Notes under the pieces: model-generated
The model's database searches: none
The model's input: the letters and a program-made list of their open reading frames with translations, nothing else
What the model was told of the DNA's origin: nothing
Assembly: GCA_040390125.1 (NCBI GenBank)
Contig: JAZJYZ010000001.1
Location: forward strand, 6,428-70,427
DNA length: 64,000 bases
DNA from: Patescibacteria group bacterium
Lineage (GTDB): Bacteria > Patescibacteriota > Minisyncoccia > Phycocordibacterales > Phycocordibacteraceae
Direction: 5' to 3'
Made by a program: the position numbers and the translations under genes
In this document: one piece after another, positions 2,635 through 43,897 of the stretch
How positions within the stretch are numbered: the stretch's first letter is position 1
How the letters are laid out: each line of letters begins with the position of its first letter

Positions 2635-3648
2635 ATGAAAAAGAAAATCCTATACGTCATTACGAAATCAAATTGGGGCGGAGCTCAGCGGTACGTTTTT
2701 GATTTGGCAACAAACCTTCCGAAAGAAGACTTTGAGGTGAAGGTTTTCTTTGGAGGCACGGGAGAAGCGGACGCTTCTTATGGAATGCTTGCCACTAACT
2801 TAAGTATAAAAGGAATACATGGGGAACAGTTGCCAAGCTTCATGCGTGATATTTCTATTTCACGAGACTATAAAACTTTAATACGACTAATTGATCTGTT
2901 TAAAAAAGAAAAGCCTGATGTCGTCCACCTAAATTCGTCCAAAGCTGGAGGCATCGGGTCAGTAGCTGCTCGATGGGCAGGAGTGAAAAATATTATTTTT
3001 ACTGTGCACGGTTGGCCTTTTTTGGAAGACCGCTCAATCTTTGCAAAGACATTAATTTGGTTTGCCTCATGGCTTACAGTATTACTTTGCCATAAAGTCA
3101 TTTGCATTTCTGAATATGATCTGCAAATCGCAAGACACATGCCGTTTGTTGGTAAAAAAACAGTTCGTATTTATAACGGCATTGCTCCACTTGAATTAGG
3201 GTCCGGAGAAAAAATACGCACCACCTTCCCCTTTGGTGTACAGATCACTGGAACTATTGGCGAATTGAACAAAAATAAAAATCAACAAGCACTCATTGAA
3301 GAGGCGAAGAATACACCAGACATGTATGTTGCAATCGTGGGGATTGGAGAAAATTACACTACACTTCAAGAAAAAATAATACAATATAACCTACAAGAAC
3401 GGGTCAAGCTGTTTGGTTTTATGCCCGCAAGCGAGGCACTTAAAGGCTTTGATATCTTCACCTTACCATCCATAAAAGAAGGTCTGCCTTATGTGCTCTT
3501 AGAGGCGAGAGCGGCAGATCTTCCGATAGTTGCGAATCGCATCGGAGGCGTGGGTGAGATTTTGGATGCTAAGGACTTGAGTGAATTCTCACTTGAACAA
3601 ATGGTACAAAAAACAACAGCTTTGTATGCCCTGAACTCTGAACTCTGA
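2635..3648 (+). CDS. Glycosyltransferase family 4 (GT-B fold)
   Basis: C-terminal EGLPYVLLEARAADLPIVANRIGG motif typical of GT4. Divergent from the sugar transferase. C-terminus (..ALNSEL*) is encoded by the CTGAACT heptamer repeat. Confidence 0.8.
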   Translation: MKKKILYVITKSNWGGAQRYVFDLATNLPKEDFEVKVFFGGTGEADASYGMLATNLSIKGIHGEQLPSFMRDISISRDYKTLIRLIDLFKKEKPDVVHLNSSKAGGIGSVAARWAGVKNIIFTVHGWPFLEDRSIFAKTLIWFASWLTVLLCHKVICISEYDLQIARHMPFVGKKTVRIYNGIAPLELGSGEKIRTTFPFGVQITGTIGELNKNKNQQALIEEAKNTPDMYVAIVGIGENYTTLQEKIIQYNLQERVKLFGFMPASEALKGFDIFTLPSIKEGLPYVLLEARAADLPIVANRIGGVGEILDAKDLSEFSLEQMVQKTTALYALNSEL

Positions 3649-7151: not shown

Positions 7152-7563
7152 CATGTTTTCACGAATTACCTTCGTGCATTGGACTGTAACTTCATCCGTT
7201 CTGGATGTTCAACATTCAGTCTCTAGAGGCAAAGTAGTTTTGAGTATTGAGTTCTGAGTTCAGAGTTAAAACTCTAGACTCGGAACTGGGAACCCTGAAC
7301 TAACTAATTCCCTCGGTATTACCCTTCGCATAAGCGAATTGGGCTTCACCGATATAAGTTGATTTCTTCTTGCATGTTCCCATGCAAGACCGCCGTGATT
7401 GGTTGATTTCTTTTTCTTTTTGTCTGACGAAAGACCTTTTATATATTTCGAACAACTTTCATTTCTCGATTGGGCTCAGACTGTCTAAGCGGGAAAGTAG
7501 AGAGTGGAATGTGGAGAGTAGTTTAACTACCTTCTACACTCTACCTACTACCTTCTAACCTAA
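7152..7563 (-). other. Intervening sequence in 23S rRNA at the E. coli L2593 (I-CreI homing) site; candidate ORF-less group I intron
   Basis: The conserved sequence GGGUU(C/U)AGAACGU|CGUGAGACAG is split by 412 nt. The 5' exon ends in U and the insert ends in G (omega-G-like). The insert has no ORF and contains heptamer repeats plus a GA-rich hairpin element. Confidence 0.55.
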
Positions 7564-11956: not shown

Positions 11957-12056
11957 GCTACAGGCTAGCTTTCAGCTTTCAGCTTCTAGCTTATAGCTTT
12001 AAAAACAAGGGTTTCTTCCCCAGCTGGAAGCTGAAACCTGACAGCTGGAAGCTAAT
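11957..12056. repeat. AGCT-based degenerate heptamer tandem repeats (AGCTNNN)n
   Basis: GCTAGCTTTCAGCTTTCAGCTTCTAGCTTATAGCTTT...CAGCTGGAAGCTGAAACCTGACAGCTGGAAGCTAATG. 7-nt periodicity anchored on AGCT. Confidence 0.9.
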
Positions 12057-35625: not shown

Positions 35626-36210
35626 CTACAGTCCACTCTCCGAAATAGCTTCGTTGATGCGGCGTACCAAAGTCGGGCGAGATTCACGTACAGCTTTTAG
35701 AGTTCCTATATCATACGCAATATCCAAAAACGCCTGTGTGGCTAGCTCTTCTCGAACATACCCCAATGCTGAAAGCACCCGAAACACCGTCACACATTCT
35801 GCCTCCAAAACATATTCCTGATCCATCGGAGGTAGTGCGGTAAAAAAACCAAAAAGTGCACTAAAAAGATACGGGTCACTCCCCTCACCACGAATAAATT
35901 GCCGTACGACTGCGATTATTCTGGCGGAAGCTTCTTGGGCGTCACTCTTTCCTGAAAGGGAAAAGTAAGAATTTTCAGTATTGGTGGCACCAATGATGCG
36001 CCACACATCACGCCCTTTTACTAACGTAAAAACTCCAGTTGTCCCTACTTGGAGATGCGGGCGGAGTTTAGAGCGTTCTTCTCTAGCGCTCTTCGCAAGA
36101 GCGGAAACAAGACCTAAGGAGTCTGTATATAAAGAAATGCGAACACTTCCCTCACCGGCGGAGCGTCTCGCAACCACAATGCCACGAGCTGTAACCTCAC
36201 GAACGGACAT
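35626..36210 (-). CDS. recO: DNA repair protein RecO (probable)
   Basis: N-terminal OB-fold pattern (ARGIVVARRSAGEGSVRISLYTDSLGLV) and size are consistent with short RecO proteins. No zinc motif. Overlaps the ileS 3' end. Confidence 0.5.
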   Translation of the reverse strand: MSVREVTARGIVVARRSAGEGSVRISLYTDSLGLVSALAKSAREERSKLRPHLQVGTTGVFTLVKGRDVWRIIGATNTENSYFSLSGKSDAQEASARIIAVVRQFIRGEGSDPYLFSALFGFFTALPPMDQEYVLEAECVTVFRVLSALGYVREELATQAFLDIAYDIGTLKAVRESRPTLVRRINEAISESGL

Positions 36211-39200
36211 CGAGAGATTCTCCTGTTTCCTTACCACTAAGGTTTGTCATTTTCATAAGATCATTCCAGTTAGCCTCAACTAAATCTGACTTCTCTGAAG
36301 GGAAAATAAGAGTCGCTGACTCTTTTGGTTGAAGGTTTGCTTTCTTTCTCAAGTCCTGAATCTCACGAACGAGCTCTCGAAACTCCCCTTCTCTCTTTAG
36401 TGTCTCGGTAATGTTTGTATCAAGAACGACTTCGCCTTTGGGAACAACTTCATCAATAACTACATTTTTAACATTCAACTCATCCTTAACAAGCTCCAAT
36501 AGTTCCGTCCTCCCTCTAAGCTCTGGACTCTGAACTCTGAACTCATTCAGCGGTTGCCTCACCTTTACCCCCGCCTTCTGTCTCGCTTCAAGCCCTAAAG
36601 AAACTACTTTGCGTACTTCTTCCATCTCTCGAAGCAACACTTCATCTACCCTTAGAGCACGAGGCCATTCTGAGAGATGTACACTCTCTGGCGCACCATC
36701 TGCTTTCACTTTTTGGTAGGCATATTCAGCAGTGAACGGAACGAAGGGAGCAGAAACTTTTGCAAAAGTTTCTATAACATGACGCAATGTCGAAAGTGCG
36801 TGAGCCCCATCTTCTCCGGTTTCTTTAAAACGGTCACGAGAACGTCGAAGAAACCACGTTGAAAAATCGTCAACAAATAATGCGAGCGGGCGTGTTGCAC
36901 GATCAAGCTCGTACGCATCCATACCCTTTTCGACTTCACTAATTACTTCACTCATGCGAGAAAGAATCCATCTATCTAAGGGGTGCGTACTTGGAGCTGT
37001 AGCCAGAGTACTCTCATTTTTATACAATTCATAAAAAGAAATCACATTGAGAAATCTTCCGATAAGTTTTGAAGCAATTTCTCCCACTCCTTTTTCTGAA
37101 AAATTTAAATCTTCTGCACGCATCAATGGTGACGCCAACAAATAATAACGAATAGCATCTGCGCCGTATTTTTCCAACACTTCAACGGGATCAGGATAAT
37201 TTTTCAGACGTTTGGACATTTTTTGCCCATCTTCAGCGAGAACAATTCCGTTCACAATCACATTTTTATACGTCGCCTTGCCGAAAAGCCCAACCCCTAA
37301 AACTAAGAGCGAATAAAACCAGCCTCTTGTCTGGTCGAGACCTTCTGCAATAAAGTCTGCTGGGTAGCCAACGCCTCCAGTTTTCAATTTCCAGTTTTCA
37401 ATTTTCAATCCGGACTTTGGATCAAAAACATCTTTGTTTTCAAACGGGTAATGATTCTGCGCATACGACATTGAGCCAGACTCAAACCAGCAATCAAAGA
37501 CGTCGTGTACCCTCTCAAGCCTCGTGCCGTCAGAGGCAACAAGAACAACCTCGTCGATATAAGGACGATGATAATCAAGTTCAAAGTTTTCGTTGTGTGG
37601 AAGTGGAGTAAAAGGAAACTCTATTATTTCAGCATTTTTTAGAATCGGAAGTGGTCCATTTTTTTCAAGACTCCGAAATGTAAAACCTCCCGCAACAAAA
37701 CTAAGTCCACGTGCTGCCCCCGCATGAGTTATAAATACTATGTTTTTGTTAGCGTATTTTTTTTCAATTTCATACAGAAAATTCCCAGTTCTCTCTACTA
37801 ACTGTGCAAAATTTTCTCCACTGGAAAACTGTTTGTGCGGACTGTATATATAATCATGTTCATAATATTGCAACATGGTTGTAAGAGGTTTGCCTTCATA
37901 TTCAGTACTTTCCCGCCATTCAACAATACGCTCATCGTAAATTACTCTATCAATCGGGAAACCGCTTTGTTTACAAAATATTTCGACCGTTTCTTTAGTT
38001 CTGAGCAAAGGCGAAACAAAAATAAAATCAATCTTTTCTTTAAAAGCGGAGGCTGACTTTAACACCTGCTCTTTCCCTAGTTCCGTTAATGAAGCATTGA
38101 GTTCACCGGACTGTGTCCAAACTTGCATCGTGTTATTTTCAGCCTGACCATGTCGCATCACAAAATACTTGTTGCCTGATTTTTTTGTGTGCGACTTCAA
38201 CTCGTCGAGTGAACCTATGAAAGTATTTTCTTTTGTCTTTGGATTCCGCCATACGGGAATTGGCGCACCCCAATACCGAGCTCGTGAAATAGCCCAATCC
38301 CTAGCATTCTCAAGCCAATTGCCGAAGCGCTTCTCGCCGACCTCTTTCGGCACCCAGTGTATCTTTTTATTTTCGGAGACGAGCTTGTCTCTAAACTTCG
38401 TCACTTCTACAAACCACGATGACGATGCGTAATTCAAAAGAGGGGTATCGCAACGCCAACAATGCGGATAGGAATGTATTATTTTTTCCTTTGCAAAGAG
38501 TAACCCCTTCCCTGCAAGATATTTAATAACCGCAACATCGGTCGACTGTGAGTCATCTTTCGGCTTTGCTTGGAGTCCCTTGAAATCAGAAACAACATCG
38601 ACAAAAAAACCATCCTTGTCGACATGGTGCACTATCGGGATTCCTTCTTTTTGTGCGAGCTCCAAGTCCTCAGCACCGAATGCAGGAGCTAAGTGCACCA
38701 ATCCTGTTCCGCTATCATTAGTCACATAGGGAGCGTGATATACCTTCCACGCTCTCTCCTTCCCTTTGATGTTATGGTCTGCAAAATAAGAAAATGGCGG
38801 CTTGTATGATTTCCCAACAAGTGCGCTTCCAAGAAATTCTTTTTCTATTTTGTAACCAACTTTAATTACTTCCAACCTGTCTTTCGCAAGGATATATTTT
38901 TCATCCCCCACTGAAATCTTCACATAGGTAAAATCTTTATGTACCGCAGCCGCCATATTTCCAGGCAGAGTCCACGGAGTTGTTGTCCAAGCTAAAAGAA
39001 AAGTCCCCGGTTCATCAATCAGTTCCAACTTTACCGTGACAGAAATATCCGTGATGTCTTTGTATCCTTGTGCAACTTCAAAGTTAGAAAGCGTAGTGCC
39101 ACAGCGAGGGCACAGATGCATTGCTTTAAATCCTTCATACACCAAACCCTTCTTATGGAGATCATTAAATGCCCACCACACGCTCTCCGTGTATGTCGCA

Positions 39201-39670
39201 TCCATCGTCCGATAGTCATTCTCCATGTCTACCCACCTGCCGAACCTTGGAATAATTGCCTTCCAATCGTCTGAATACCGAAGTACTGCTTTACGAGCCG
39301 CTTCATTGAATGTCGCAACACCTAACGTTTCAATATCTCGCTTGGTGGCAAGACCAAGTTCTTTCTCTATTTGGTTTTCAAGTGGCAAGCCGTGGCAATC
39401 CCAACCCCAACGTCGAGGAACTCGGTAGCCCTGCATCGTCTTATAGCGGGGAATAGCATCCTTTATGGTGCCTGCAAGTATGTGCCCGTAGTGCGGGAGC
39501 CCTGTAGCAAACGGGGGGCCATCATAAAAAACAAACTCACCTTTTGGAGCCTCTTTTGAAAGAGTTTTTTCAAAAATCTCTTGTTCGTTCCAGAATTTTA
39601 AAATCTCCTCCTCCCGCTTGGCAGGCTCGCTTTTTTCTCTTTGCTCCCCTTCAGACATATAGTAAGACAA
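36197..39670 (-). CDS. ileS: Isoleucyl-tRNA synthetase (type 2) carrying an inserted histidine-phosphatase (PGAM-like) domain
   Basis: HIGH motif (PHYGHIL), CP1 editing motif TTPWTLPGN, RYWGAPIPVW, type-2 element DYHRPYIDEV, KMSKS (KMSKRLKN). About 185 extra residues lie between IPVW..SHTKKSGN and PLPHNENFELDYHRPYIDE. Confidence 0.9.
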   Translation of the reverse strand: MSYYMSEGEQREKSEPAKREEEILKFWNEQEIFEKTLSKEAPKGEFVFYDGPPFATGLPHYGHILAGTIKDAIPRYKTMQGYRVPRRWGWDCHGLPLENQIEKELGLATKRDIETLGVATFNEAARKAVLRYSDDWKAIIPRFGRWVDMENDYRTMDATYTESVWWAFNDLHKKGLVYEGFKAMHLCPRCGTTLSNFEVAQGYKDITDISVTVKLELIDEPGTFLLAWTTTPWTLPGNMAAAVHKDFTYVKISVGDEKYILAKDRLEVIKVGYKIEKEFLGSALVGKSYKPPFSYFADHNIKGKERAWKVYHAPYVTNDSGTGLVHLAPAFGAEDLELAQKEGIPIVHHVDKDGFFVDVVSDFKGLQAKPKDDSQSTDVAVIKYLAGKGLLFAKEKIIHSYPHCWRCDTPLLNYASSSWFVEVTKFRDKLVSENKKIHWVPKEVGEKRFGNWLENARDWAISRARYWGAPIPVWRNPKTKENTFIGSLDELKSHTKKSGNKYFVMRHGQAENNTMQVWTQSGELNASLTELGKEQVLKSASAFKEKIDFIFVSPLLRTKETVEIFCKQSGFPIDRVIYDERIVEWRESTEYEGKPLTTMLQYYEHDYIYSPHKQFSSGENFAQLVERTGNFLYEIEKKYANKNIVFITHAGAARGLSFVAGGFTFRSLEKNGPLPILKNAEIIEFPFTPLPHNENFELDYHRPYIDEVVLVASDGTRLERVHDVFDCWFESGSMSYAQNHYPFENKDVFDPKSGLKIENWKLKTGGVGYPADFIAEGLDQTRGWFYSLLVLGVGLFGKATYKNVIVNGIVLAEDGQKMSKRLKNYPDPVEVLEKYGADAIRYYLLASPLMRAEDLNFSEKGVGEIASKLIGRFLNVISFYELYKNESTLATAPSTHPLDRWILSRMSEVISEVEKGMDAYELDRATRPLALFVDDFSTWFLRRSRDRFKETGEDGAHALSTLRHVIETFAKVSAPFVPFTAEYAYQKVKADGAPESVHLSEWPRALRVDEVLLREMEEVRKVVSLGLEARQKAGVKVRQPLNEFRVQSPELRGRTELLELVKDELNVKNVVIDEVVPKGEVVLDTNITETLKREGEFRELVREIQDLRKKANLQPKESATLIFPSEKSDLVEANWNDLMKMTNLSGKETGESLDVRS
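37610..38170 (-). other. Histidine phosphatase / phosphoglycerate-mutase-family domain inserted in IleRS
   Basis: Contains the RHG catalytic motif (FVMRHGQAENN), LTELGKEQ, SPLLRTKET and the second His motif FITHAG, in the canonical order of branch-1 histidine phosphatases. Confidence 0.75.
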
Positions 39671-39903
39671 ATAGTACCATCTTCACAAAGAGGCGTATTT
39701 TAGTATGCTAACGAGGTTTGCGACCAAAGAAAAATTCAGTCCCACCACGGTCGTTTTCTACTACTTCCACTGGTATGCCCGGAATTACTGCTTCTGCTTG
39801 TTTTACATCACTCTCACTAGGTCTCTCACTAGGTCTCAAAGGACCTCTTGGCCACCATCTGTCTGGTCTTCCGTTTTTTTCTCCCATAAATTTTTAGTTA
39901 AAA

Positions 39904-40057: not shown

Positions 40058-40591
40058 TCAAGAAAGTCGAGGGGTCCCCGAGAGTTTTGACTTCAGGACA
40101 TCTTCGAGAGCAATTTTAAACCAGTACGTATATTGTTCTGGATGTTCTGCAATCTGTCTCCGTAACTCTTCTATATCCATCCACTGCCATTCATCTACTT
40201 CCTCACTATTAATGAGGGGCGTACCATCCCATACTCCGACAAACATGTGATCATACTCGTGCTCAATAAGCCCATTGGAAAATTCGGCCCGGTATGTAAG
40301 CGAATGAACTTCAGTAAGTGGGCAATCAAAACCCATTTCACTTTTAAGACGTCTATGTGCGGCGTCCACAACTAACTCTCCGGCACGAGGATGGCTACAA
40401 CACGTGTTCGTCCATAATCCACCAGAATGATATTTATTAGATGCTCTTTTTTGGAGCATGAGCCGACCACTAGAATCAAAAACAAATACCGAAAAAGCAC
40501 GGTGGAGTACGCCTCGTTGGTGGGCTTCCAATTTACCCATCGTGCCGATTTCTGTATCGTTCTCGTCAACTAAAATAACTCGTTCTTCCAT
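40058..40591 (-). CDS. idi: Isopentenyl-diphosphate delta-isomerase, type 1 (Nudix family)
   Basis: LHRAFSVFVFDSSGRLMLQKRASNKYHSGGLWTNTCCSHP..GE..AA.RRLKSEMG matches the IDI-1 active-site region (Cys and Glu in WTNxxCxHP). Confidence 0.8.
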   Translation of the reverse strand: MEERVILVDENDTEIGTMGKLEAHQRGVLHRAFSVFVFDSSGRLMLQKRASNKYHSGGLWTNTCCSHPRAGELVVDAAHRRLKSEMGFDCPLTEVHSLTYRAEFSNGLIEHEYDHMFVGVWDGTPLINSEEVDEWQWMDIEELRRQIAEHPEQYTYWFKIALEDVLKSKLSGTPRLS

Positions 40592-40644
40592 AAGGTATTC
40601 ACGGAATAATACAGTATGAGAGAAAAATTAGTTTCAAAGAGGCA

Positions 40645-41271
40645 TTAATCCTCCCAAACTTTCATTTCCGCCCTTAAAAGGCCCAAAACGGAAAGTGACA
40701 TTAAAGGTTTTGAGTGCCCTGGCTTGAGAATTGAAGGAGCATGTGAAGCTAATATAGTTTTTGTCGCATTCCGTAAAGGAAACCTTTGGTGCAATTCTTC
40801 CGGATTAAACCAACCTTCAATTTCAACTTCATTATCTACCGGATGAGTCATCAGATCAGCGGCGGTTCCCACAAAGTGAACTTCGAAAACACGGGAATAC
40901 CAATTTGAAATCATACCTTCACCACGATAACAAGTCTTAGGATCGATACGAAAAAGCTTTCCTACACGTTCGACTGGAATTCCCAACTCTTCAGAAAGTC
41001 CTCGCAACACTGCTTCTTCGAACATCTCGCCATTCTCTTCGTACTGAACCGTCTCGCAGGGAACACCGTATTCGTTTGGTTTTCTTTCGGTTATATCTTT
41101 CGTTTTATTTTCTTTAACTATAAGAATTTTCCCTTCTTTATTTAAAATAAAAACACCAACACCCAACCCCTTATGCCCCTTTTCAAAAGCAACCCCGGGG
41201 GGCGTAAGCAATTTACGAAATAGAGGAGCTTGTTCAATTCGGCGAGCTTCAGGTTGAAACAACATATACAT
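40645..41271 (-). CDS. NUDIX hydrolase
   Basis: Nudix box GVPCETVQYEENGEMFEEAVLRGLSEELGI (Gx5Ex7REUxEExGU). Confidence 0.75.
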   Translation of the reverse strand: MYMLFQPEARRIEQAPLFRKLLTPPGVAFEKGHKGLGVGVFILNKEGKILIVKENKTKDITERKPNEYGVPCETVQYEENGEMFEEAVLRGLSEELGIPVERVGKLFRIDPKTCYRGEGMISNWYSRVFEVHFVGTAADLMTHPVDNEVEIEGWFNPEELHQRFPLRNATKTILASHAPSILKPGHSKPLMSLSVLGLLRAEMKVWED

Positions 41272-41873
41272 TAATTAGTACGCAAAAGAAAATTAGAAAG
41301 TTCCACTGGAGTTTTCACAACCTTATTAGGTTTTCCTTTTTTAAGACGTGTACGGGAATGAAAACCGGAGGCAAAAGCAATAGTTTTAATACCCGTGCTA
41401 CTAACCTCCTCAAGATCACCACGTGTGTCTGTAACGAACCAGGAATTTTCTGCAGTTACCCCGGTCTCTTCTAACAACCCTTGTATTTTTTCAACCTTAC
41501 TTGCACTTTTTTGCACACCCCACACCTGGTTGAACAATGGCTTAATGCCATTACTTAAGAGGTACCCATTTATTCCATCCTCATCGCTTGAGGAAATGAT
41601 CGCCATTGAAAATACCTTATGTAAAGCGGGCAAAGTACTCTTCCATCCAGATGCCAATCTCACATTTTTCAATGCTTCTGCATATTTTGCATAAAACTTA
41701 GGCATACTGAGCTCTATCTTTTTTCTTTTCAGATAGGTATGAAGGTTTTCATCGAACCACCTTCGATACTCAGTTTTCGTCAGCGTAGGAACCTGTTCTT
41801 TAAAAATTCTATAACTCAACTCAAATGTGTCCGCTAAAACACCGTCAAAATCAAATATAAGAAGCCTTTCCAT
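41271..41873 (-). CDS. HAD-superfamily hydrolase (phosphatase)
   Basis: Motif I LIFDFDGVLADT at the N-terminus. HAD motif II/III-like residues downstream. 200 aa. Confidence 0.75.
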   Translation of the reverse strand: MERLLIFDFDGVLADTFELSYRIFKEQVPTLTKTEYRRWFDENLHTYLKRKKIELSMPKFYAKYAEALKNVRLASGWKSTLPALHKVFSMAIISSSDEDGINGYLLSNGIKPLFNQVWGVQKSASKVEKIQGLLEETGVTAENSWFVTDTRGDLEEVSSTGIKTIAFASGFHSRTRLKKGKPNKVVKTPVELSNFLLRTN

Positions 41874-41918: not shown

Positions 41919-43586
41919 TCACATCGCCTCAGGAGCCCGTATTCCAAGAACGTAGAGGCCGTTTTTCATTGTTAGTGCAAAAGCACTTGTAAGAGCGAGT
42001 TTGTAGGATTCGTACTCATCTCCGATGATGCGTCCTTGTGCGTACCAACCATTAAATGCACTCGCAAGCTCCGTAAGGTACGTGGTGACGTGGTGTGGCT
42101 CGTATTCCTTCCCTGCTCTTTCCACGACTTCAGGAAAGCGATACAGAAGTCGCTCGAGCGAGGAAACCGTTTCGGGAAGGCTTCCAGCTTTCAGCTTCCA
42201 GCTTCCAGCTTTCTTCAAGACCGATTGGGAGCGAGCATAAGAATATTGCAAATACGGGCCGGAGTCGCCTTCAAATGAAAGTGAGGCTTCTGGATCAAAG
42301 ATAATATTTTTTCCCGTTGACTGTTTCAACACCGAATACTTAATTGCAGAAACAGCCACTGCATCTGCGACATCACGTTTTATTTCTTCAGACTCAAACA
42401 CACGCCCCTCCATTTTTGCCAATGCTTTTGCTCGCATCTCTTCTATCAAGGATTCTCCGGTAATTATGTTTCCTTTTCTCGATGACATCTTGCCTGTTGT
42501 TAGTTGCATCATGCCAAATACCACGTGCGTGTAGCGCCCATGAAGAGCCGGCATTAATTCTGCAAGCGATGATTCAACAACCTTAAAATAAGCGTCCTGC
42601 TCCACAGCGACAGTGGTTATGTTCAAATCAAAAGGCGATGTGTGCAACTTTGCCTCTACCAACCCAAGCTCTTTTGCTTCATAGGTTGGTGTTCCTTTGG
42701 ATGTTAAAAACACTCGAGTGTGCAAACCTACTTTCTCGCCTTTGTATACAACGGCTCCGTCACTTTTCTCAAAAATCCCCTTCTCCAAACCTTCTCTCAC
42801 AAGTTCGACACCTCGCCTCCATACTTCACTCTCAAAGAAATAGCGATCAAACCGTGAACCTAGAATAGTGTAGAGATCATCAAAGTGTGCGATTGAAGTT
42901 TTACGGCCTTCTGTGTAGAGGTCATGAAGTGTAGGATCATTTTCATATAAACGAACATTGAGAGAGTCGATTTCTTTTTTCGCTTCCGGGTCGTCCTCAT
43001 ACGCACTGTTACCTGCAACGTACGCCGCACCAAGTGCTGAAATATCTTTCGGATCAAGATGCTCCTTCATGATGCCCCATATGCACTTAGCAACATGGGG
43101 GCCGATATCGCCCTGATAATTTGCTCGGAATATTTTAGCCCCTGAGGCTTCTACTAAACGGGACACCGTTTCACCTACAGCCGTCGACATCAAGTGCCCA
43201 ATATGGAATGGCTTGAAAGGATTTGGCTGTGAATACTCAACAATGATCTTCTTTCCTTTAAGAGTTGCATTACTGCCCCACAACTCTCCCCTCTCAAGAA
43301 TTCCCAAAACACTGTCAGAAAAGAAAGCACGTGTGAGATGGAAGTTAATGAATCCAGCACCTGCAACGTCTATTTTCTCTACGCCCTCTATTGTTCCTAG
43401 GGTTGCGACAATCTCTTCCGCAAGTGTACGAGGATTCTTGCCTGCTTTTTTTGCAACAGCGAGTGCAATGTTTGTGGAATAATCCCCGTGTGAGAGCTCA
43501 CTTGGGTGCTCAAGCACTACCTCGCCCTCAAGCCCGAGAGTCTTTAGCGAATGCTGTATTGCTTCAATAATTGCCTCAGAAATCAT
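41919..43586 (-). CDS. argS: Arginyl-tRNA synthetase
   Basis: Class I HIGH (PFHIGHLMST), catalytic core and C-terminal DALR anticodon-binding region. The ORF extends to 43751, but the conserved N-terminus begins at MISEAIIEAI (ATG 43586). Contains an in-frame heptamer-repeat insertion at 42181..42215. Confidence 0.9.
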   Translation of the reverse strand: MISEAIIEAIQHSLKTLGLEGEVVLEHPSELSHGDYSTNIALAVAKKAGKNPRTLAEEIVATLGTIEGVEKIDVAGAGFINFHLTRAFFSDSVLGILERGELWGSNATLKGKKIIVEYSQPNPFKPFHIGHLMSTAVGETVSRLVEASGAKIFRANYQGDIGPHVAKCIWGIMKEHLDPKDISALGAAYVAGNSAYEDDPEAKKEIDSLNVRLYENDPTLHDLYTEGRKTSIAHFDDLYTILGSRFDRYFFESEVWRRGVELVREGLEKGIFEKSDGAVVYKGEKVGLHTRVFLTSKGTPTYEAKELGLVEAKLHTSPFDLNITTVAVEQDAYFKVVESSLAELMPALHGRYTHVVFGMMQLTTGKMSSRKGNIITGESLIEEMRAKALAKMEGRVFESEEIKRDVADAVAVSAIKYSVLKQSTGKNIIFDPEASLSFEGDSGPYLQYSYARSQSVLKKAGSWKLKAGSLPETVSSLERLLYRFPEVVERAGKEYEPHHVTTYLTELASAFNGWYAQGRIIGDEYESYKLALTSAFALTMKNGLYVLGIRAPEAM

Positions 43587-43651
43587 ACTTTCGCCATCAT
43601 ACCTCGCTAGAGCATGTCTTAAAACGGGGGTGTCCAAGCCGAGACACCGAC

Positions 43652-43897
43652 TCACCTCTGGAACCAACCATGAACACATGAAGGCTTGTCGTGACTTACG
43701 ACTCCCGCTATGTTTATTGTTGGTTCGCCATGCCCTATTGATTCTCCACATCCCCTACATACGGGATAGTGCTCTTTAGGGGCAATCGTTGATTTTTCTT
43801 TTGTCGAGCCAATCATGCTTAGGAGCGTATTGAGGTTCGACTTAGTAAGTGGCCACCCTATAACGACTGGAAGTTGCCCATGATTTTTTTCTTTCAT
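43652..43897 (-). CDS. Possible small Cys-containing ORF (81 aa) upstream of argS
   Basis: ORF has a CRGCGESIGHGEP segment. Its stop is followed immediately by a GGTGTC/GACACC hairpin plus U-run. Could be spurious. Confidence 0.2.
   Translation of the reverse strand: MKEKNHGQLPVVIGWPLTKSNLNTLLSMIGSTKEKSTIAPKEHYPVCRGCGESIGHGEPTINIAGVVSHDKPSCVHGWFQR

Follow-up and report, generated by a model that had tools for sequence, protein, structure and literature searches.

A histidine phosphatase domain nested within the isoleucyl-tRNA synthetase of Patescibacteria

The locus and its isoleucyl-tRNA synthetase

We analysed a stretch of 64,000 nucleotides (nt) from a Patescibacteria group bacterium (Minisyncoccia; Phycocordibacterales; Phycocordibacteraceae; assembly GCA_040390125.1, contig JAZJYZ010000001.1, positions 6,428 to 70,427), referred to here as the window, and focused on ileS, the gene for isoleucyl-tRNA synthetase (IleRS), which carries an in-frame histidine phosphatase module. 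Positions are those of the window, and the genes and coding features described below lie on the reverse strand. The ileS gene occupies nt 36197–39670 as one continuous open reading frame (ORF) of 1157 codons from a TTG. Translation probably begins instead at the ATG of codon 5 (nt 39658), because the identical NCBI protein (P0121) has 1153 residues and alignment column M5 is at least 90% conserved; the ATG annotated by NCBI lies 12 nt inside the TTG-initiated ORF.

Pfam profiles identified tRNA-synt_1 in two stretches (E 1.9e-135), Anticodon_1, DUF5915 and His_Phos_1 in the encoded protein. The NCBIfam ileS equivalog TIGR00392 scored 881.7 bits against a cut-off of 621.4, also in two stretches that flank the insert. 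The class I signatures are HYGH (amino acids (aa) 60–63, nt 39482–39493) and KMSKR (aa 817–821, nt 37208–37222), and the CP1 editing-domain motifs TTTPWTLPGN and GTGLVHLAPAFG were invariant or near-invariant in the family alignment. The N-terminal part (aa 1–495, nt 38186–39670) is collinear with an insert-less relative (P0147) and with human, yeast and Thermus IleRS, and comprises the first half of the Rossmann fold, the connective peptide (CP) core, the CP1 editing domain, CP2, and the first strands and helix of CP3 (domain names follow PMC7191050). The C-terminal part (aa 690–1157, nt 36200–37603), delimited by Pfam and by collinearity with P0147 and solved IleRS structures, holds the rest of CP3 (PLPHN..DYHRPYIDE), the second half of the Rossmann fold (WFESG, DQTRGWF and KMSKR), the anticodon-binding domain and DUF5915. 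Structures of type-2 IleRS matched the protein at 698–734 bits over both halves, whereas type-1 structures (1FFY and 8C9E) scored approximately 300 bits over the N-terminal half only. The ORF thus encodes a bona fide type-2 (eukaryote-like) IleRS, in agreement with a preliminary description of this DNA: TIGR00392 is passed and both halves are collinear with type-2 structures. No second ileS was found within the 64-kb window. Membership of the mupirocin-resistance families MupA and MupB (NF000257 and NF000258) was rejected, because the protein scored 700 and 697 bits where 1900 is required.

The nested phosphatase module

Between the two synthetase parts lies a branch-1 histidine phosphatase of 194 residues (aa 496–689, nt 37604–38185). 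Its edges were set by comparison with P0147, which is collinear with aa 1–495 and 690–1157 of the window IleRS and has four residues in place of the 194; alignments to human, yeast and Thermus IleRS open a gap at the same place. These bounds are close to the insert of approximately nt 37610–38170 given in the preliminary description, which had also named four phosphatase motifs, all of which were present in the order it gave: RHG (506–508), LTELG (528–532), SPLLRTKET (553–561) and THAG (648–651). His_Phos_1 (PF00300) matched aa 503–663 (E 2.1e-25; 89.9 bits against a gathering cut-off of 21.7), and the excised insert alone scored 94.2 bits (E 1e-26). The catalytic His and Arg residues are kept. 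R506 and H507, the catalytic Arg and nucleophilic His of R506-H507-G508 (codons at nt 38147–38155), R557, the second phosphate-binding Arg within SPLLRTKET (nt 38000–38002), and H649, the second catalytic His within ITHAG (nt 37724–37726), were invariant across 120 insert-bearing sequences (119 homologues plus the window protein). The candidate proton donor E584 (nt 37919–37921) was found in 117 of 121 aligned sequences, and N513, E584, E619 and R627 were each conserved in at least 94%. G+C content is 0.37 inside the module versus 0.41–0.47 in the flanking parts of ileS.

Window residue 493 aligns with approximately residue 497 of Candida albicans IleRS, inside CP3, which in that enzyme spans residues 473–534 (approximately 60 residues) and in Thermus IleRS contains a zinc motif (PMC7191050). 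The CP3 zinc cysteines are gone from the window protein, and the insert takes the place of the short Thermus-type zinc loop, as had been proposed. AlphaFold2 modelled the module with its anchors at a predicted local distance difference test (pLDDT) score of 94 and a predicted template modelling (pTM) score of 0.90, bearing out the expectation that the insert folds as an independent domain. The whole protein reached pLDDT 90 and pTM 0.85, and both module junctions were above 90, which indicates that the predicted domain is rigidly set rather than attached by a floppy linker.

In a Foldseek search of the PDB, 312 structures matched at E ≤ 1e-3, and all of the top 50 listed belonged to the histidine phosphatase superfamily. 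The top matches were PspA, GpgP (Rv2419c), the riboflavin-pathway phosphatase HFP, PhoE and CobC, with a root-mean-square deviation of approximately 3 Å compared with 7–9 Å for cofactor-dependent phosphoglycerate mutases (dPGMs); by sequence, the closest solved relative was PspA (E 2e-12). The initial label of ‘phosphoglycerate-mutase-type’ therefore has to be replaced: the module, of approximately 190 aa, is phosphatase-type, its nearest structures being PspA, GpgP, PhoE and CobC, and it misses the dPGM cut-offs (TIGR01258, NF038349 and related models; 25–50 bits against 82–366). The dedicated models for PspA (NF045917, 56.4 bits against 350), CobC (TIGR03162, 56.0 against 162.9) and SixA (TIGR00249, 28.5 against 74.5) were likewise rejected. 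We consider it virtually certain that the module is a real, intact and nested histidine phosphatase domain.

Distribution and conservation

The nested module is lineage-wide in bacteria of the candidate phyla radiation (CPR) and is no rarity of the window. Among the 120 closest full-length relatives of the window protein, 119 share its Pfam architecture at 55–76% identity, and the nested form was present in Kaiser-, Taylor- and Nomurabacteria, ‘Pacebacteria’, Parcubacteria and other Paceibacteria. Approximately 33 distinct sequence fragments span both module junctions, and at least 24 species-representative genomes carry the nested form, including those of Yanofskybacteria, Spechtbacterales, Minisyncoccia and Peregrinibacteria/Peribacteria. 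In all, the architecture occurs in more than 150 independent assemblies with both junctions conserved, and hundreds of public sequences carry it under generic names. The related CPR genomes that the preliminary description had proposed to search therefore yielded IleRS orthologues both with the insert (119 of 120) and without it (P0147). Identity among relatives was 33–52% in the module versus 55–76% in the IleRS core; we infer that this combination of a fast-evolving module and a frozen catalytic centre is what an active enzyme would look like.

Some public relatives are broken into three or four ORFs, as might be expected if a phosphatase gene had been joined to a broken ileS by assembly or gene calling. 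These relatives sit on contigs with other frameshifted genes, pointing to indel-prone assemblies; recurrence in more than 150 independent assemblies, the presence of both IleRS halves in one frame with the module and the confident AlphaFold2 model of the whole protein also argue against such an artefact, which we regard as extremely unlikely. The earlier conclusion that the insert is neither a frameshifted neighbour nor a chimera stands, given the continuous frame and its recurrence across assemblies. Short proteins with both PF00133 and PF00300 on long contigs (P0031 and P0024) were considered as natural split genes. This idea was dropped because at these loci, and at L001, IleRS is spread over three to four ORFs beside other frameshifted genes. 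At three loci (L001, L003 and L004), genes for serine hydroxymethyltransferase, prolyl-tRNA synthetase, thymidylate synthase and IleRS were broken into two to four ORFs; breakage of this kind is characteristic of long-read assemblies with many indels and makes ‘partial’ or ‘split’ synthetases look more numerous in protein databases than they are.

A free-standing orthologue beside ileS

A subfamily of free-standing phosphatases (189–198 aa) has the N terminus MKLNNKY[FY]xxRHG, matching the near-invariant N500 and Y502 of the module. Module and subfamily have in common the signature NxY[FY]xxRHG, (I/L)EKKYxxKNILIVSH and a C-terminal strand GE(L/V)RE(L/I). In related CPR bacteria, the free-standing gene lies in the order argS–phosphatase–insert-less ileS (931–962 aa) with gaps of 1–10 nt, and recO and a DUF11/CLIPPER gene follow this type of ileS, matching the neighbourhood in the window. 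Synteny was scored at 79 metagenome loci, a biased sample made up of best matches to one query family: ileS lay within 350 nt downstream on the same strand in 54 of the 68 loci with enough downstream sequence (within 5 kb in 62), and argS lay within 350 nt upstream in 51 of the 61 loci with enough upstream sequence (within 5 kb in 59). The IleRS encoded beside a free-standing phosphatase has no CP3 insert (median, +1 residue). An adjacent gene in some genomes and a nested domain in others constitute a Rosetta-stone relationship between phosphatase and IleRS.

In the window, argS, for arginyl-tRNA synthetase (ArgRS), is the conserved upstream neighbour (nt 41919–43751), and recO the downstream one (nt 35626–36237), both assigned by Pfam and synteny. 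The slot between argS and ileS (nt 40058–41873), where relatives keep the free phosphatase gene, holds three small hydrolases identified by Pfam: a HAD_2 gene (nt 41271–41873) and two NUDIX genes (nt 40645–41271 and 40058–40591). No free-standing phosphatase was found elsewhere in the window among 198 six-frame segments. At one locus with a free-standing gene (L032, protein P0311), an apparent defence island with AbiEii, NERD, MazG-like, SLFN-like helicase and DUF3800 genes separates argS from the phosphatase, and ileS is not adjacent.

The insert-less P0147 protein (962 aa, at a syntenic locus) bears on the direction of change. Its identity to the window IleRS was 81% over the N-terminal 491 residues and 64% over the C-terminal 469, a difference that could reflect either recombination at the deletion point or close to it, or unequal constraint on the two halves. 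A rough neighbour-joining (NJ) tree of IleRS cores, built without support values, placed P0147 deep inside the insert-bearing clade, so that it represents a secondary, clean loss of the module; because a close relative has lost it cleanly, the module is dispensable for aminoacylation. The same tree interleaved lineages with adjacent genes and lineages with nested modules, and its deep branches were very short.

Further insertion sites, tandem copies and ValRS

An exhaustive search for the module, with Pfam and NCBIfam scans and landmark mapping of insertion sites, distinguished three positions in IleRS. Site A is in CP3, where modules are single or in tandem; site B is the loop that separates WFxSG from DQxRGW; and site C follows KMSKS and comes just before the anticodon-binding domain. 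Tandem pairs of modules occupy CP3 in Peribacteria-type proteins and loci (P0293, P0333, P0393, L025 and L028). Sites B and C are both filled in the IleRS of the P0250 cluster, which was assembled six times on contigs of up to 1.06 Mb and which P0324 resembles, and sites A and B are both filled in P0253. Every copy in the two-copy and four-copy forms keeps the full catalytic set. An NJ tree of modules was star-like, with only site-specific clades standing out clearly (tandem A1 versus A2, B, and C). The tandem duplication appears to be old, with both copies retained, because first and second copies form separate clades. Many of the 170–235-aa ‘free’ representatives in this tree turned out to be IleRS fragments and were set aside.

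The four-module protein P0270 is a valyl-tRNA synthetase (ValRS). Among its 120 closest relatives (ValRS of Gracilibacteria/Peregrinibacteria), approximately 70 have between one and three modules, most of them in the CP3 loop homologous to that of IleRS, on contigs of up to 1.37 Mb. Among the module-bearing proteins examined, the synthetase hosts were IleRS or ValRS only.

Other domains were seen in these synthetases. P0284, a partial Joint Genome Institute (JGI) metagenome IleRS of 1066 aa, has His_Phos_1 followed by a GNAT domain in CP3. It also has a REP-associated tyrosine transposase (RAYT; IS200/Y1-like) domain at aa 326–472, within the region of the editing domain (NF047646, score 81.3 bits, cut-off 80; Pfam Y1_Tnp, E 7e-12). 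Either a mobile element that inserted in frame or an assembly error could account for this domain. The CPR ValRS proteins P0427 and P0462 include the endonuclease-like PF04480 (DUF559) among their Pfam domains, once together with His_Phos_1, a further sign that CPR class Ia synthetases accumulate nested foreign domains.

Possible function of the module

We infer that the module is enzymatically active and that its association with IleRS is functional rather than neutral, and we put the probability that it is an active accessory phosphatase functionally partnered with IleRS at approximately 60%. By homology, it would hydrolyse phosphomonoesters through a phospho-His507 intermediate, with R506, R557 and H649 holding the phosphate and E584 acting as the acid, and it would serve as an accessory enzyme outside the aminoacylation chemistry. 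A phosphatase gene from the argS–ileS slot would have moved into a permissive loop of ileS, placing two activities in one polypeptide.

Several observations weigh against this interpretation. Every named NCBIfam phosphatase equivalog scores far below its cut-off, and substrate specificity in the histidine phosphatase superfamily is not readable from sequence. Catalysis does not seem to be maintained everywhere, because, of 85 ValRS modules, 27 are without the acid Glu and 10 without the second His. The P0147 locus shows loss of the module without replacement, and no phosphatase gene was present beside insert-less valS at the two loci examined; because of these observations, coupling of phosphatase and synthetase is not obligatory, and the valS loci confine the Rosetta-stone pattern to ileS. 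The synteny counts carry the sampling bias given above, and the deep branches of the NJ tree, which has no support values, are too short to count or polarize the transitions between adjacent and nested forms.

As to the substrate, we tentatively prefer a diffusible small phosphomonoester to the tRNA 3′ end and would give this choice somewhat less than even odds; the compound would most plausibly be of nucleotide type, with a place in nucleotide housekeeping or synthetase turnover. With a mean isoelectric point (pI) of 5.9 and a net charge of −4.9, the modules are acidic (free-standing relatives, pI 7.2), and a test for a basic RNA-binding surface on the modules was negative at that mean pI. 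A small molecule is mildly favoured over the tRNA end because the surface is acidic, the fold neighbours are small-molecule enzymes, the phosphatase also exists as a free-standing protein and its insertion sites are scattered, one of them next to the anticodon-binding domain. The HAD and two NUDIX hydrolases in the argS–ileS slot of the window are weakly suggestive of nucleotide housekeeping.

The preliminary description had instead raised action on a 2′/3′-phosphorylated tRNA end, for which we found no support given the acidic modules, the several loops occupied and the free-standing form. In such a healing role, the module would strip a 2′/3′-phosphate (or an opened 2′,3′-cyclic phosphate) from the CCA end of IleRS-bound tRNA to permit charging. 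It is tethered to or co-transcribed with enzymes that handle the tRNA 3′ end, its catalytic residues are conserved and it also occurs in ValRS, which handles tRNA in the same way. However, the nearest structures are all small-molecule phosphatases, site C neighbours the anticodon-binding domain in the sequence, a long way from the path of the acceptor end, and end damage is not specific to tRNAs for Ile or Val, yet the hosts examined were all IleRS or ValRS. To our knowledge, no enzyme of the histidine phosphatase superfamily acts on RNA ends, and a literature search found none. We therefore think tRNA-end healing improbable. The same low standing applies to a phosphoprotein phosphatase that guards IleRS by removing an inhibitory phosphate, for example from Ser819 of KMS819KR, and so counters a Hip-type or other kinase. 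Several superfamily members (SixA, PGAM5 and Sts-1) are protein phosphatases, the KMSKS segment lies between sites B and C in the sequence, and a tether would by itself be enough for such a role, in keeping with the multiple insertion sites and copies. There are also precedents for attack on this loop: HipA phosphorylates GltX at Ser239 (KLSKR) and HipT phosphorylates TrpS at Ser197 (KMSKS), inactivating these class I synthetases (PMC6581861, PMC7029023). Against this, none of the loci examined showed a kinase partner, we found no documented Hip-type phosphorylation of IleRS or ValRS, and the module has a cap region and resembles small-molecule enzymes, not SixA, in its nearest structures.

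A broader version, in which the module is a dedicated and hitherto unrecognised cofactor enzyme of IleRS and ValRS in CPR bacteria that removes a blocking phosphate from a component of charging (the serine of the KMSKS loop, the acceptor end of the tRNA or an analogue of a substrate that carries a phosphate), strikes us as unlikely, if less remote than either specific role. If true, it would explain why the phosphatase was repeatedly built into two synthetases or translationally coupled to ileS, and aminoacylation would gain a repair or anti-toxin step. We also judge it unlikely that the module is a neutral passenger, an ileS-adjacent housekeeping phosphatase caught in permissive loops of drift-prone reduced genomes with nothing but co-expression gained. 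Passenger status would suit a module that evolves faster than its host, is tolerated at many positions, has been lost cleanly once without visible consequence (P0147) and is decaying in some ValRS copies, and the same loops accept GNAT, a RAYT-like domain, DUF559 and heptamer-repeat peptides. On the other hand, the free-standing gene sits very close to ileS in a widely conserved arrangement, the module has become nested repeatedly (in at least three IleRS loops and also in ValRS, a paralogue), and old tandem copies were both kept with intact catalytic sets. Loss of a single stop codon would be enough to fuse the phosphatase end to end with argS, which lies just as close, yet no ArgRS–phosphatase fusion was seen among the module-bearing proteins examined.

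Relation to known systems

Outside the insert, the window protein is fully collinear with canonical type-2 IleRS of known structure (Thermus thermophilus 1ILE, C. albicans 6LDK, yeast 7D5C/8WND and Priestia megaterium IleRS2 8C8U; E ~1e-215 to 1e-219). It differs from them in having an enzyme domain of 194 residues nested where they have a small CP3 of approximately 60 residues (PMC7191050). The module in turn resembles the compact phosphatases PspA (4IJ5), GpgP Rv2419c (4PZ9), HFP (9MMH), PhoE (1H2E) and CobC in fold, size and the R-H-G/R/E/H set (Foldseek E 1e-13 to 1e-10; template modelling (TM) score ~0.65–0.75 on the target), but identity is only 18–26%. It is unlike them in having its own subfamily signature and in being nested in, or encoded beside, a synthetase; the dPGM_arch model gave it 50 bits against 225.

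A curated precedent for an IleRS with an extra enzymatic domain exists in ileS_w_GNAT (NF040702), and P0284 also carries a GNAT domain. That family is a different IleRS lineage with a different passenger: against a cut-off of 1999, the window protein scored 315.7 bits and P0284 218, and membership of the window protein, which has no acetyltransferase domain, was rejected. The best-scoring NCBIfam phosphatase model for the module was NF005567 (58.5 bits against a cut-off of 326), which describes Rv2228c-type RNase H/acid phosphatases. In these, a CobC-like histidine phosphatase is fused to a nucleic-acid enzyme, as an end-to-end fusion with an unrelated partner, whereas our module is nested. 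As in Rosetta-stone fusions generally, the argS–phosphatase–ileS arrangement presents separate adjacent genes in some genomes and one polypeptide in others. It departs from the usual case in being a domain-in-domain arrangement placed approximately 1.5 kb inside the downstream gene, in involving several loops and in extending to a paralogous enzyme. A histidine phosphatase domain without an established physiological substrate is also found in tRNA-related machinery in the yeast TFIIIC subunit tau55; tau55 differs in being a eukaryotic transcription factor with the domain at its N terminus, unrelated to synthetases.

No curated model for a phosphatase-bearing IleRS was found in NCBIfam, and no published description was found, including in the AARS Online paper, in a search that covered few subscription journals, which makes this no more than absence of evidence. 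The earlier claim of an undescribed architecture thus holds in that we found neither literature nor a curated family; as for its being new to the databases, hundreds of public sequences already contain it. The window gene is an ordinary member of a large, apparently undescribed class.

Aminoacyl-tRNA synthetases are highly conserved, and their extra domains have repeatedly revealed new biology, such as editing, signalling and complex formation. In the present case, IleRS contains an entire second enzyme over a very large part of CPR/Patescibacteria, strong purifying selection acts on the catalytic residues of that enzyme, and the argS–phosphatase–ileS operon is an independent genomic signal that phosphatase and IleRS belong together. 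This combination offers a testable pointer to a phosphorylated substrate linked to Ile/Val charging in organisms that are hard to reach. It also shows that class Ia synthetases can accommodate entire extra domains in CP3 and nearby loops, a property of use in protein engineering, and explains the names ‘class I tRNA ligase family protein’ and ‘histidine phosphatase family protein, partial’ assigned by the NCBI pipeline.

Heptamer repeats in the window

The preliminary description had also noted a heptamer insertion near the IleRS C terminus (nt 36519–36546). This repeat is real: Tandem Repeats Finder (TRF) placed a period-7 array of CTCTGAA (3.4 copies) at nt 36521–36544, encoding NEFRVQSPEL. 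A second TRF repeat in ileS, of period 7/14 (nt 37376–37409), encodes KIENWKLKTGG in the loop between WFESG and DQTRGWF. At this patch, the window IleRS is 7 aa (21 nt) longer than P0147, and aa 756–764 are predicted to be disordered (pLDDT <50). The patch sits in the site B loop, which holds a phosphatase module in P0250, P0324 and P0253. With an argS array (nt 42180–42211) that encodes SWKLKAGS in ArgRS, three heptamer arrays lie inside synthetase genes, all in frame.

Similar arrays are scattered over the 64 kb, with period 7 at nt 3631, 11967, 19805, 19880, 28331, 36521, 37381, 42180, 47336, 50938 and 52729, and period 14 at nt 7492, 10740, 19808, 21002, 25957, 27161, 35568, 37376 and 62448. 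CTCTGAA or a rotation of it recurs at nt 3631, 36521 and 52729 (9.6 perfect copies at the last), and AGCTTTC recurs at nt 11967, 19805 and 28331. Most of these arrays look intergenic against the ORF list. The ileS heptamer insertion is one case of a genome-wide heptamer-repeat phenomenon unrelated to the phosphatase, and the dispersed heptamers are reminiscent of cyanobacterial short tandemly repeated repetitive (STRR) heptamer sequences. Two 12-nt tandem duplications were also present, one overlapping the ileS start region (nt 39653–39676) and the other just upstream of the start (nt 39811–39837).

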